The notes beneath the pieces were generated by a model. The model was not told the origin of the DNA. It ran no database searches and worked only from the letters and a program-made list of their open reading frames with translations. Below are positions 28,876 through 33,254 of a stretch of DNA of 33,254 bases, piece by piece. The stretch comes from a virus (lineage: Duplodnaviria; Heunggongvirae; Uroviricota; Caudoviricetes). Every line of letters starts with the position of its first letter. Within the stretch, counting starts at the first letter, position 1. A program made the translations under genes and the position numbers. Location: IMG/VR virus record IMGVR_UViG_3300050026_000241; one strand, written 5' to 3'.

Positions 28876-29103
28876 ATGTTCCATATTGAGCACAATACTG
28901 AAATCAGCCACGTCTTCACGTTCCAAGCACCGGAGGAAGTTGTGGCACTGTTTGACGAGCCCGAGGGTGTCGAACTTGACGGCGGCAACTTTGATATTGC
29001 CGCTGTTCGTGAACCGGGCGAACCTGCCAAACTCCGTCTGACTGTCATGGTTCGGGAGACCAAGACTCGTGGCGACACCGATCTTTCCAACGAAGAACCC
29101 TGA
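28876..29103 (+). CDS. small hypothetical protein
   Basis: ATG 28876 follows the kinase stop; 75 aa. Confidence 0.6.
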   Translation: MFHIEHNTEISHVFTFQAPEEVVALFDEPEGVELDGGNFDIAAVREPGEPAKLRLTVMVRETKTRGDTDLSNEEP

Positions 29104-29119
29104 AACCAAAGAGTATCTA

Positions 29120-30229
29120 ATGAGCGACATCATAATTAGCGTCGAGCGTATCAAATCCGTTGAGCCCCACCCACAGGCTGACCGCTTGGAGATTGCCAAG
29201 ATTCTTGGCACGCAATGCGTTGTGCCCAAAGGCGAACACAAGGCCGGCGAGAGTGTGGTCTTTTTCCCGCCCGACATGGTGCTGCCCGGCGACGTGAGTT
29301 TGCAGCTCGGCGTTCAGAAGTATCTCAAGCATTCGCTGGTCGAAGGCTTGAAGATTCCTTCGCGTGTGGCCGCCTGCCGTCTGCGTACTGTGGCCAGTTT
29401 CGGCTTCATTGCCAAACTGCCGCCTGAGTTGTCGCATTTGGCCGGGTGGGTCGGCACGGAGCAGGCCAACGTGACCGAGTTCTATCGTGGCTTCAAATAT
29501 GAGCCGCCCGCCGCGCCTCGCGGTGCGATGTGGGGCGGCATGGCCCCGGAACACCCGATGTTCCACCAGTATACCGATATTCAGAATCACTATCGTTACC
29601 CGGACGCGATTCCGACCGGAACCATTGTCCGCGTGACCGAGAAGATTGACGGAACCAATAGCCGGGCTGGCGTGGTCTATTGCGACGGTGAATTCCAATT
29701 CATGGCGGGCTCCCACAAGAAGAACCGCAAGAAGGAATTCGAGGGAGCGGCTTCGCTCTACTGGGAGCCGCTGGAAATTGAGGGCGTGCTGAACATGATT
29801 AACACGCTTTGCGACGGCCGCCGCAACATCGTTGTGTTCGGGGAGATTTACGGTCCCGGTGTTCAAGACCTGGATTACGGCATTCCGGCCGGTGACATCG
29901 GCTACCGGGTGTTCGACATTACGGACGACGGCGACTACCTGGACTTCGACATCGTGAAGGCCATGTGCGACAACAATGACGTGGAGTTGGTCCCGTTGCT
30001 GTACAAGGGTCCGTTCAGCCAGAGGATGGTTGAAGAGTTGACCAGCGGCCCGACGACTTTGGTGTCGCCCGAAGGCATCAAGAGCAAGTTCAAAGGCCGC
30101 GAGGGCATCGTCATTACGCCCGTGGTGGAAGCCTACAGCGAAATCCTGGGCGGCCGGATGATCCTCAAGAGCAAGTCCGCCGACTACCTTGATCGCAAGG
30201 GCGCGGAAGACAACGGGGAGGCCGAGTAA
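29120..30229 (+). CDS. RNA ligase, DRB0094/Rnl5-like
   Basis: N-terminal IKSVEPHPQADRLEIA domain, then nucleotidyltransferase motifs TEKIDGTN, FGEIYG, FDI, EGIV and LKSKS. Confidence 0.88.
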   Translation: MSDIIISVERIKSVEPHPQADRLEIAKILGTQCVVPKGEHKAGESVVFFPPDMVLPGDVSLQLGVQKYLKHSLVEGLKIPSRVAACRLRTVASFGFIAKLPPELSHLAGWVGTEQANVTEFYRGFKYEPPAAPRGAMWGGMAPEHPMFHQYTDIQNHYRYPDAIPTGTIVRVTEKIDGTNSRAGVVYCDGEFQFMAGSHKKNRKKEFEGAASLYWEPLEIEGVLNMINTLCDGRRNIVVFGEIYGPGVQDLDYGIPAGDIGYRVFDITDDGDYLDFDIVKAMCDNNDVELVPLLYKGPFSQRMVEELTSGPTTLVSPEGIKSKFKGREGIVITPVVEAYSEILGGRMILKSKSADYLDRKGAEDNGEAE

Positions 30230-30716: not shown

Positions 30717-30754
30717 CGCGCACAACCCCGTCTCGTTTTACGACTCTCTATGTG
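30717..30754 (+). promoter_or_regulatory. conserved bipartite motif, copy 4
   Basis: CGCGCACAA-N8-CGTTTTACGACTCTCTATGTG; ends 9 nt before TTG 30764. Confidence 0.75.
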
Positions 30755-30763
30755 GAGAACTCA

Positions 30764-31609
30764 TTGACACATTACTACTCCGACCTCTACACCACGATCC
30801 TCAATGCCGATGCCCTGGACGGTGCCGATTGGCTGGTCCGTCACGGGCATAAGGTTGACTGCATCGTCACGTCGCCGCCGTTCTACGGTCAGCGCGACTA
30901 CGGTGTGGAAGGCCAGCTTGGCTTGGAGGCCGACCCGCAGGAATACTTAGACAAGCTGGTCGCCATCTTTGACGCTTTGATACCAGTCCTCAAAGATACG
31001 GGAAGCCTGTGGGTGAACCTGGGCGACACCTATTGGAGCGGCCGGGGGCAGGCCCGAGGAGGCGAGAACAAGCAGTCCGCCCGCCGCTTCGGCTGCCGGC
31101 CGCAAGATAAGCGGCGTCCCGGCCTGTGGACCCGTGGCAAGCAGCTATTGCTACTTCCCCACCGCTTTGCCATCGCCATGCAGGGCGAGGGCTGGATCGT
31201 CCGCAACGACAACGTGTGGGTCAAGGCCAACCCCACCCCGGACCAAGTGCGGGACCGCTGCGCCATGTCGCACGAGTATATGTTCCACTTTGTCCGCGAG
31301 CGGTTTTACTACTTCGACAAGAAGACCGTCGGCCGCCGCACGCAGAAGGGCGGCGTCATGCCGCCCTACGATACCTGGCAAGTCCCCTCCTCGCACGGCG
31401 GCAAGGGCCACCGGGCGACCTTTTCCAAGCAACTGGTGGAACTCCCCGTCCTGGCAACCTGCCGCTACGGCGGGACCGTGCTGGACCCCTTCGCCGGCAG
31501 CGGCACGACCCTGAACTACGCCCGTGCCCACGGCCGGCTCTCCATCGGCATCGACATTTCCCCCGAATACTGCCAACTAATGAAAGACCAACTGTGTCCG
31601 ACAAGCTGA
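30764..31609 (+). CDS. DNA methyltransferase, N4C/N6A family, beta arrangement
   Basis: VTSPPFY, WVNLGD, HEYMFHF, H.ATF and LDPFAGSGTT motifs. TTG start inferred from GGAG 6 nt upstream. Confidence 0.88.
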   Translation: MTHYYSDLYTTILNADALDGADWLVRHGHKVDCIVTSPPFYGQRDYGVEGQLGLEADPQEYLDKLVAIFDALIPVLKDTGSLWVNLGDTYWSGRGQARGGENKQSARRFGCRPQDKRRPGLWTRGKQLLLLPHRFAIAMQGEGWIVRNDNVWVKANPTPDQVRDRCAMSHEYMFHFVRERFYYFDKKTVGRRTQKGGVMPPYDTWQVPSSHGGKGHRATFSKQLVELPVLATCRYGGTVLDPFAGSGTTLNYARAHGRLSIGIDISPEYCQLMKDQLCPTS

Positions 31610-32352
31610 TCCTCCCCTCTGCCGATGTCATGTACGCCAATGCAATGGCCCGTCCCGCCGAGATCAAGCGGGAAGTTGCCCGCAAGATCAATGAACGGGC
31701 CTGCGGCGTGAAACGAATCGCCGCCGCCCTGGACTTGGCCGTCTTGAAGCCCACGGCGGGCCGACGCGATGTTGAGGTCGCCGCCGCCCTGGTGAATCAG
31801 CACGGCATTTGCTCGTTATGCGTGCCGTCCAGTTTCGTGCCGCTCGCCAGCAACTTGACCGCCCGAGTTTGCTCCGTGGTCGGTTTTCCACACGGCAATT
31901 CGTGTATCACGGCCAAAGTCGATGAAGCCGGAGAGGCCCTCTACTATGGGGCGGTTGAGTTGGACATTGTGGTCAGCTACGGGCGTTTCATGGAAGGCAA
32001 CCCCGATCCGGTAGTTTCCGAGTTGACTCAGATCGTCAATATCGCTCACGCCCGACGAGCTATCGTTAAGGCGATCTTGGAAACGTGCTGCCTGTCCCTG
32101 CCACAGATTGCCGATCTGTGTCGGCTGTGTGCGGACTGCGGCGTTGACTATGTGAAAACGTCAACCGGGTTCAGCACGGGCGGTGCGGATACGATGGGTG
32201 TGCGGTGTATGCTCGACACTGTTGGCAGCCGTTGTTTGGTCAAGGCAAGCGGCGGTATTGATTGCTATGAGAAGGCGAAGATGTTTCTCGACATGGGCTG
32301 TGCCCGTATCGGGGCATCCAAGTACCTTGAACTTTTACCATCCTGGGGGTGA
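31594..32352 (+). CDS. deoC: deoxyribose-phosphate aldolase
   Basis: VGFPHG, ELDIV, VKAILET, DYVKTSTGF, VKASGGI and RIGAS motifs. Start taken as GTG 31594; ATG 31630 is an alternative. Confidence 0.9.
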   Translation: MSDKLILPSADVMYANAMARPAEIKREVARKINERACGVKRIAAALDLAVLKPTAGRRDVEVAAALVNQHGICSLCVPSSFVPLASNLTARVCSVVGFPHGNSCITAKVDEAGEALYYGAVELDIVVSYGRFMEGNPDPVVSELTQIVNIAHARRAIVKAILETCCLSLPQIADLCRLCADCGVDYVKTSTGFSTGGADTMGVRCMLDTVGSRCLVKASGGIDCYEKAKMFLDMGCARIGASKYLELLPSWG

Positions 32353-32698
32353 ATTGGAATCGACCGGGCAGGTTGAAGTGTAGGTTGCGTTCCGTGGTTG
32401 GTCGGCAGGCCACGATAAAAGCCGACCACAAAGTAGACGCCACTAATCAAATGGCAATGGCGGCCTAGCACCGCCCCGGTTGATGGTCTTCGTCGGAGAG
32501 ACTTGACTACCGGCTGTAATTCCGAATCGCCTGGGTGAGAATCGGCGGAACCTGGGCTAAACAACTCAGCCGAATGGTCAGACGGGAACCCTGTCGGTTC
32601 GGGGACGCGAGACGACGATTGCAAATAGAATCGACTATCGAACGTAGACGCTTACATGGAAATGTCACGGGACCGGGGTTCAATCCCCCGCGCCTCCA
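32345..32698 (+). ncRNA. ssrA: tmRNA
   Basis: Acceptor GGGGGTG/CGCCTCC with G3-U70 and A73; GGAATCGAC; pseudoknot 1 with stems CGTGG/CCACG and TGGTCGGC/GCCGACCA; T-arm CGGGG-TTCAATC-CCCCG. No encoded CCA. Confidence 0.93.
32439..32468 (+). other. tmRNA tag reading frame ATNQMAMAA-stop
   Basis: GCC ACT AAT CAA ATG GCA ATG GCG GCC TAG follows pseudoknot 1 and ends in Ala-Ala. The resume codon is inferred from position. Confidence 0.8.
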
Positions 32699-32714
32699 CT
32701 TTGAAAGAAAGCCT

Positions 32715-33254
32715 ATGAATCGACTGTTTTATAATCGTGTCTATCTATCTGGCCCGATTGACAATGCTAAGGATTTTGGCACGGGCTGGCGAAATGAAAT
32801 CAAAGAGAAATTGGCCGATCTTCAACTAATTTTTCTGGACCCGTGTTCCAAACCGATGCAACCTGGCTACGCTTGTGAGGATTTGGAAAATCATGCCCGT
32901 CGAGTGGAGCAGAAGAAAAATGGTGACTTTGAGACTATTGCACGAGAGATGCACCTGATTCGATGTATCGACTTGCGGCTCGCTGACTTGTGTGATTTTG
33001 CAATCGTACATCTTGATCGAGAAGTCTACTCGACCGGAACACATGAAGAGATAGCCCTGCTAAATCGACGAAAGGTGCCGATCCTCGTCCACGTTGAACA
33101 AGGAAAGGCAGCACTACCCGATTGGTATTGGGGCACTCTCCCGCATCAGCATGTTTTCAGTACGTGGGACGAGATACTCTTGTATGTCCGCCATGTCGCG
33201 CATGACCCGCCGCCTATTGACAGTTACAATCGCTGGCGGTTTCTGGATTACGGA
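32715..33254 (+). CDS. nucleoside 2-deoxyribosyltransferase / nucleotide N-hydrolase-like protein (3' end beyond the window)
   Basis: Manual translation MNRLFYNRVYLSGPIDNAKDFGTGWR...FLDP...IDLRLADLCDFAIVHLD...STGTHEEI matches the YLsGP, D...D and G/T..E pattern of this family. Open to the window end; not in the ORF track. Confidence 0.72.
   Translation, partial: MNRLFYNRVYLSGPIDNAKDFGTGWRNEIKEKLADLQLIFLDPCSKPMQPGYACEDLENHARRVEQKKNGDFETIAREMHLIRCIDLRLADLCDFAIVHLDREVYSTGTHEEIALLNRRKVPILVHVEQGKAALPDWYWGTLPHQHVFSTWDEILLYVRHVAHDPPPIDSYNRWRFLDYG

Follow-up and report, generated by a model that had tools for sequence, protein, structure and literature searches.

A deoC-like class I aldolase gene ends inside the gene for a transfer-messenger RNA (tmRNA, encoded by ssrA) in a 33,254-nucleotide (nt) stretch of viral DNA, hereafter the window, with the stop codon of the coding gene forming part of the tmRNA acceptor stem. 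The window comprises the first 33,254 bases, on the reverse strand, of the 69.5-kilobase (kb) IMG/VR virus record IMGVR_UViG_3300050026_000241, which is classed as linear and estimated to be 67% complete; nearly all genes of the record are packed on the + strand. The overlap is common to four related tmRNA-bearing phage types, which fall into three deep lineages. As the best explanation of the whole, held with moderate confidence, we propose that the record derives from a large phage of peat Planctomycetes with Pirellulales/Thermoguttaceae-like hosts, that an ancestor of this phage captured a host-type tmRNA gene, and that the overlap is a tolerated scar of this capture in a compact genome rather than an evolved regulator. 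A blastn search of the region against 50,697 deposited phage genomes gave no match, and exact-pattern scans of IMG/VR with four segments of the tmRNA (5' end, 3' end, tag region and pseudoknot 1 (PK1) hairpin) recovered only the record of the window itself.

The deoC-tmRNA overlap

The junction reads ...CCA TCC TGG GGG TGA, and both ARAGORN and Infernal place base 1 of the tmRNA at G32345, giving an 8-nt overlap with deoC. The stop codon corresponds to U6-G7-A8 of the acceptor stem, in which U6 pairs with G32692 and G7 with C32691. A first-pass annotation, made from the letters of the window, had placed the deoC stop inside the acceptor stem and counted eight overlapping bases from G32345. Both statements agree with the sequence and with the two programs, and the overlap recurs base for base in the relatives L004/L005/L006, L007 and L049. 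A same-strand coding-sequence stop within the mature tmRNA sequence was found in the window phage and in four relatives; the annotation had asked where the stop lies in related phages, and in every relative with a readable tmRNA it lies inside the RNA.

The tmRNA was matched by Infernal to Rfam RF00023 over model positions 1-374 with 120.4 bits against a gathering score of 47, and the tmRNAs of the relatives scored 121-127 bits. Its tRNA-Ala-like domain has an acceptor stem of seven base pairs that joins GGGGGUG to CGCCUCC, with a G3·U pair (G32347·U32695) and A32698 as the discriminator; the T-arm and PK1 were both recognised. The 3' end reads ...CCUCCA-C-UUU; as also in the host clade, the 3' CCA is incompletely encoded. 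All phage copies encode one and the same tag peptide. Among the phage lineages the tmRNA is 87-93% identical, compared with about 50% divergence at the synonymous sites of deoC, and the PK1 hairpin and two T-stem pairs show compensatory double changes. This pattern of purifying selection marks the tmRNA as functional. No SmpB gene was found in the 69.5-kb fragment, which is 67% complete, and the phage may still carry one; the phage tmRNA presumably uses host SmpB. As a separate observation, the frame that starts at tmRNA position 2 (window 32346-32468) is open through the tag stop and in frame with the tag, and an upstream gene that entered the tmRNA in this frame would end in a degradation tag.

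The product of deoC is 100% identical to the called public protein P0004 and matches PF01791 (DeoC/LacD family) with 42.1 bits against a cut-off of 23.8. It has 6834 homologues at E <= 1e-20, many of them annotated as deoxyribose-phosphate aldolase (DERA). The motifs ELD, VKAILET, VKTSTG and KASGGI are all present, and in the protein alignment A2 residues D124, K159 and K217 are invariant and K188 nearly invariant; these presumably correspond to the catalytic residues D102, K137, K167 and K201 of Escherichia coli DERA. Proteins of the family normally end at ...ELLP; deoC continues past this point with three codons (Ser-Trp-Gly) and the stop. Across the three deep tmRNA-bearing lineages, the ratio of non-synonymous to synonymous divergence (dN/dS) of deoC is 0.08-0.18 at a dS of 0.77-1.06, which identifies deoC as a functional gene under purifying selection. 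DeoC must therefore still be made in useful amounts, with enough of it untagged.

A mosaic junction was also noticed inside deoC (window 30764-31730). The first ~40 codons, together with the upstream methyltransferase gene, resemble L003/L046-type phages, the N-terminus being nearly identical to P0010, and the remainder resembles the L004 type. The non-synonymous difference from that type is 0.30-0.47 in the first windows of the comparison and then falls to ~0.02, which suggests a recombination breakpoint near codon 45.

Capture of a host tmRNA gene

The DeoC proteins of the relatives were compared in alignment A2, and the identities given here are those of each DeoC to the DeoC of the window. 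The distant relatives P0010-P0021 (53-63% identity) all end exactly at ...ELLP, and the closest relatives carry short, variable C-terminal extensions. Among the tmRNA-bearing relatives, L004, L005 and L006 represent one phage type found in three samples (83%), and L007 (78%) and L049 (80%) form a closely related pair. The linker from ELLP to the first base of the tmRNA (G1) is 12 nt longer in L004 and remains in frame, and position -1 is C instead of T. The tmRNA-less relatives comprise L003 (63%), the contig of P0007 (69%), L045 (67%) and L046-L048 (58%, contigs up to 373 kb); in these phages the next gene follows deoC directly, and the deoC stop usually overlaps its start codon as ATGA. The small open reading frame (ORF; MN..LE.AGF...) that follows deoC in L046 and L045 is the one that follows the tmRNA in L004-L006. 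The ATGA junction and the shared small ORF together place the tmRNA insertion exactly at the boundary between deoC and the next gene, and this comparison assigns the event to an ancestor shared by one sub-clade. The stop had shared bases with the next start, and so deoC lost its own stop codon. The small ORF was later lost from the lineage of the window. In a further relative, P0008 (ENA sample ERZ1426827; 71%), DeoC ends ...ELLPVV and is followed by 385 nt without a called gene. This gap fits the size of a tmRNA and may hold one with its 5' end downstream of the deoC stop.

The donor was traced by comparing tmRNA genes. A tree of 41 tmRNAs united the phage copies in a single clade whose sister is a Pirellulales/Thermoguttaceae group, at 68-71% identity. 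The 28-nt PK1 hairpin has exact matches in seven Pirellulales/Thermoguttaceae metagenome-assembled genomes, several of them from peat, and the tags of the host clade (AESQLAMAA, AESKLAMAA and AESPLAMAA) terminate in ...AMAA, like that of the phage. By these comparisons the phage tmRNA derives from Pirellulales/Thermoguttaceae hosts. In the hosts, ssrA comes with a dedicated extended -10 promoter 70-85 nt before G1, and a repetitive leader lies downstream of the promoter; neither is found in the phages, where homologous deoC coding sequence reaches to within 4-16 nt of G1. On the host side, the extended -10 promoter (TGCTTATAAT) is strongly conserved across Thermoguttaceae/Pirellulales ssrA, and the 5' leader consists of two or three CTGAACCC-like repeats before G1 (both L008-L013).

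Two other accounts of the junction were set aside. Use of the tmRNA as a prophage integration site (attB in ssrA) was rejected, as the gene is complete and both flanks are phage genes syntenic with the tmRNA-less relatives; in addition, the host genomes G001-G003 have a single ssrA each, and the host-clade tmRNA tags differ. Similarity of the host ssrA leader (CTGAACCC repeats, ...TTTAC) to the end of deoC or to the linker, a possible recombination microhomology, was too short to judge.

Comparison with the hosts also showed that the T at tmRNA position 6 is derived. Position 6 is C in all 36 of the host-order (Pirellulales) bacterial tmRNAs that were read, 34 of which have GGGGGCGA, and T in all phage copies. 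With the partner G unchanged, the C-G pair became a U·G wobble, and this extra U6·G wobble was not seen in the host order. If position 6 were C, the deoC frame would run eight more codons to a TGA at tmRNA positions 30-32. The C-to-T change creates the earliest stop that spares G1-G5 and shortens the intrusion of deoC from 32 to 8 nt. Where the linker is short (TCC TGG), no single change other than the position-6 transition yields a stop while leaving both G1 and G2 intact; where it is long, three single changes would do so, this one included. These features are good evidence for ribosomes running on from deoC into tmRNA sequence, with consequences large enough for T6 to be retained. They do not demonstrate selection for a stop inside the RNA.

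Expression and alternative readings of the overlap

RNase P makes the 5' end of tmRNA, and ribosomes that arrive at stop-less 3' ends of mRNA are rescued by tmRNA-SmpB, with tagging of the product. We propose that a host-type ssrA was acquired by the phage without its promoter and inserted at the 4-nt ATGA overlap of deoC and the next small gene. Having lost its stop, deoC would have read into the tmRNA until the C-to-T change at position 6, which keeps the pair as U·G, created TGA. The tmRNA would now be made within the deoC polycistronic transcript, driven by a phage promoter-like motif upstream. Host RNase P would then cut the tmRNA free at the 5' end, and 3' nucleases would complete the excision. 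Each processed transcript would leave, as a side effect, a deoC mRNA ending ...CCA UCC U, without a stop (cut at 32344/32345). Ribosomes still on this mRNA would need rescue, giving DeoC...ELLPS plus the tag, and those that finish before the cut would release DeoC...ELLPSWG. Given co-transcription, cleavage by RNase P is very likely; some non-stop translation, and with it tagging, would be expected to follow.

Several lines of evidence bear on how the tmRNA is transcribed. A T7-promoter-like bipartite motif (GCGCGCACAA, 8 nt, CGTTTTACGACTCTCTATGTG) occurs four times in the window and six times in the 69.5-kb record, compared with zero copies expected by chance, and every copy lies on the + strand a short way before a gene start. 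The motif stands directly upstream of deoC in L004-L007 and L049, and in L004 its core ends 11 nt before the ATG. A second promoter-like class, a sigma-70-like cassette (TTGACTTCT ... TATAAT-like), is found only beyond 39 kb. Between the upstream motif and G1 we found neither class, loose criteria included, and no + strand terminator-like site; the scans were consensus-based, and the promoters of Planctomycetes phages are poorly known. The first-pass annotation had remarked that deoC and the tmRNA leave no room for a promoter between them, which is literally true, and had named a separate promoter inside deoC as the alternative; deoC contains neither phage promoter-like class, and no promoter-like site was found there. 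Synonymous divergence in the last 25-35 codons of deoC is 0.36-0.54, compared with a gene average of 0.48-0.57; with no drop at the 3' end, no conserved hidden element or promoter is evident. The lack of an internal promoter-like site, the missing host promoter and the motif upstream make co-transcription of deoC and the tmRNA the most economical reading, and on these sequence grounds we consider it probable. As to the wider record, the sigma-70-like cassettes lie outside the window, at record positions 39303-69425 (reverse-strand coordinates), and four of the six T7-like motif copies lie within window 5659-30754, in the replication/nucleotide-metabolism half, so the two promoter classes partition the genome.

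Four peat metatranscriptome runs were compared, as assembled contigs, which cannot show RNA ends. Contigs that match the tmRNA body exactly were present in three runs from different studies, and exact pieces of the methyltransferase gene and deoC in two runs; in both cases DNA carry-over is possible. Other contigs, at depths of hundreds to thousands, match window 32356-32432 at ~92-97%. These abundant tmRNA-like contigs diverge at 32432, just before the tag, and probably represent host-clade tmRNAs.

Some observations weigh against the reading of the overlap as a scar on a co-transcribed unit. T6 could have come with the tmRNA from an unsampled donor instead of arising in the phage. The overlap has persisted over a dS of ~1, which leaves room for selection in its favour, and a TAC codon in the linker of L004 offered a one-step stop upstream of G1 that was not used. 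An internal promoter of an unrecognised type is possible, since the promoter rules of Planctomycetes phages are poorly known. A polymerase or sigma factor that would read the upstream motif was not found: neither a T7-type RNA polymerase nor sigma-70 region 2 was detected in the 69.5-kb fragment, which at 67% completeness gives no evidence of absence from the phage. Finally, RNA contigs cover the deoC body and the tmRNA body separately and none bridges 32344/32345, although such contigs show no ends.

These points have to be set against the alternatives. If the tmRNA were made mainly from an unrecognised promoter of its own in the 3' part of deoC, the overlap would be of little consequence. 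The simplicity of consensus-based scans in phages and hosts with poorly known promoter rules leaves space for this reading, as does the strong promoter that host tmRNA normally has, yet the host promoter was not carried over, the sequence up to 4-16 nt from G1 is homologous deoC coding sequence, neither phage promoter class occurs in deoC, and synonymous sites in its last 25-35 codons are about as diverged as elsewhere. We consider an own promoter possible but unlikely, and read-through deoC transcripts would be cut even so. It is highly improbable that the tmRNA is a decaying, functionless passenger whose processing and overlap are irrelevant. The missing SmpB gene and the close relatives that lack a tmRNA would fit a passenger; Rfam scores of 120-127 bits over the full model length, a tag that is the same in all lineages, 87-93% identity against ~50% at neutral sites, compensatory pair changes and exact copies in RNA libraries do not.

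Two further readings give the overlap a role of its own. According to the first, which we judge unlikely, the arrangement is an evolved device in which tmRNA maturation turns deoC mRNA non-stop, and DeoC is limited or timed by the rate of processing and by the capacity for rescue and proteolysis. That non-stop logic can regulate is known from ArfA and from the smpB gene of Carsonella (PMC4131195), and the overlap was kept in three deep lineages (dS 0.8-1.0) despite a 12-nt in-frame linker indel, with the single-step stop upstream of G1 that L004 had available (TAC) left unused. The layout, however, follows directly from insertion at the ATGA junction; a single insertion and a single C-to-T event underlie it, and the lineages therefore do not count as independent replicates. 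Purifying selection on DeoC is normal, which requires sufficient untagged protein, and close relatives manage without a tmRNA. We also know of no link between DeoC and ribosome rescue. The second reading treats the overlap as a translation-gated maturation switch in which the phage-specific U6 was selected because it makes termination coincide exactly with the helix that RNase P recognises. While ribosomes terminate at U6-G7-A8, the 5' strand of the acceptor stem would be held single-stranded, blocking RNase P. The tmRNA would be released only when deoC traffic thins because ribosomes are scarce or stalled, and the cut would then shut off DeoC by leaving its mRNA non-stop; we regard such a switch as improbable. 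Overall, an adaptive role of the arrangement seems unlikely, because one insertion and one point mutation suffice to produce it, relatives do without the tmRNA, and DeoC has no known link to ribosome rescue.

The first-pass annotation had interpreted the overlap as a built-in feedback that ties ribosome-rescue capacity to deoxyribose catabolism. The mechanical part of that interpretation, in which tmRNA maturation creates a non-stop mRNA, fits all that was testable. The feedback part found no support: the layout is fully explained as an insertion scar plus one C-to-T change, DeoC is under purifying selection, and the idea itself had already been published (PMC4131195).

Known overlaps and neighbouring genes

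The concept of an mRNA made non-stop by tmRNA maturation is not new, having been described for the smpB-ssrA overlap in Candidatus Carsonella ruddii (Mao et al. 2009; Hudson, Lau and Williams 2014, PMC4131195). The authors spoke of a feedback situation, and their survey of 2031 bacterial genome projects turned up no other case (PMC4131195). In Carsonella, the genome is that of a reduced endosymbiont and the overlapping gene, smpB, encodes the partner of tmRNA, whereas here the genome is that of a phage and the gene encodes a metabolic aldolase. The Carsonella proteins have variable C-terminal extensions, and only half of the strains have the overlap (PMC4131195); unlike in Carsonella, the tmRNA described here was captured without a promoter and the stop was created by a C-to-U change in the acceptor stem. 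The same survey counted 250 same-strand overlaps with an upstream coding sequence in 115,660 t(m)RNA genes (PMC4131195, Table 4), with FtsW/RodA and tRNA-Ile-CAT in Helicobacter as an example. As here, the stop of the upstream coding sequence lies inside the t(m)RNA, and such overlaps were proposed as high-frequency sources of non-stop mRNA; unlike here, nearly all of them involve tRNAs, and no phages were included (PMC4131195). The likeness to ArfA is one of logic. In the account of ArfA given in that survey, an endonucleolytic cut removes the stop and the product is tagged by tmRNA and degraded; RNase III makes the cut within a hairpin, the protein so controlled is a rescue factor in its own right, and regulation was demonstrated (PMC4131195). 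Here the putative cut would be made by RNase P, and the product is an aldolase unrelated to rescue, which sets the overlap apart from ArfA-type regulation.

Phage tmRNAs have been catalogued, and to our knowledge their expression is almost unstudied. They are known from huge phages (PMC7162821) and from ~2.3% of isolate phage genomes (PMC9004378). Like the tmRNA of the window, they are complete ssrA genes related to those of the host lineage and lie within phage operons (PMC7162821; PMC9004378), but these reports describe no coding gene that ends inside the tmRNA. The tmRNA of phage Melnitz is a two-piece RNA located just after an early promoter (PMC9004378), unlike the one-piece RNA found here. 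The present case stands apart in being set in a phage, in having a capture history that could be reconstructed, and in drawing its stop from a mutation of the acceptor stem.

By comparative evidence, the case shows how a phage tmRNA was captured, namely from a Planctomycetes host, without a promoter and at a junction where two genes overlap, after which a mutation in the acceptor stem of the tmRNA itself 'repaired' the upstream gene that the insertion had broken. It offers a natural test system with three contrasts: C6 or U6 in the tmRNA, a stop that lies within the RNA or outside it, and relatives that carry the tmRNA or lack it. The system bears on a question raised for Carsonella in 2014: does an overlapping tmRNA, as it matures, flood the cell with one particular non-stop mRNA, and does the cell tolerate this, pay for it or make use of it? 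We know of no test of that question since.

The features of the region are collected in Table 1.

Table 1. Features at and around the deoC-tmRNA junction (window coordinates).
Feature	Coordinates	Strand	Remarks
Phage promoter-like bipartite motif	30717..30754	+	nearest candidate start of the methyltransferase-deoC-tmRNA unit
N6/N4 DNA methyltransferase gene	30764..31609	+	PF01555, E=8e-40; probable TTG start at 30764
deoC-like class I aldolase gene	31594..32352	+	252 amino acids; GTG start; PF01791
deoC stop TGA	32350..32352	+	tmRNA positions 6-8; phage-specific T6, U·G wobble with G32692
One-piece tmRNA gene, complete	32345..32699	+	ARAGORN; Infernal/Rfam RF00023 gives 32345-32701
Tag reading frame ATNQMAMAA + stop	32439..32468	+	ARAGORN; GCC resume codon
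Nucleoside 2-deoxyribosyltransferase-like gene	32715..33254, past window end	+	starts 15 nt after the tmRNA

The methyltransferase gene stands between the bipartite motif and deoC only in the window phage and in the L003/L046-type relatives, where the homologue in L046-L048 has 281 amino acids; it is absent from this position in L004-L007. Downstream of the tmRNA, the deoxyribosyltransferase-like gene shares 50% identity with the gene immediately after deoC in L003, which lacks a tmRNA. It runs ~530 nt past the window end (L001:423-1487, minus strand) and is fused in frame to an HNH-AP2 homing-endonuclease domain (residues ~185-355; phrog_99, E=3e-20). The homologues in L003, L005 and L007 consist of the deoxyribosyltransferase-like domain only. 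With the HNH domain missing in these relatives, two lineage-specific insertions, the tmRNA and the HNH domain, flank the deoxyribosyltransferase-like gene. Upstream in the window, an RNA ligase gene (29069-30229) encodes 386 amino acids; its counterpart in the related phage L004 (L004:880-3072) encodes 730 amino acids, with LAGLIDADG_2 between the OB-fold and ligase domains, and this insert is probably an intein or a homing-endonuclease insertion.

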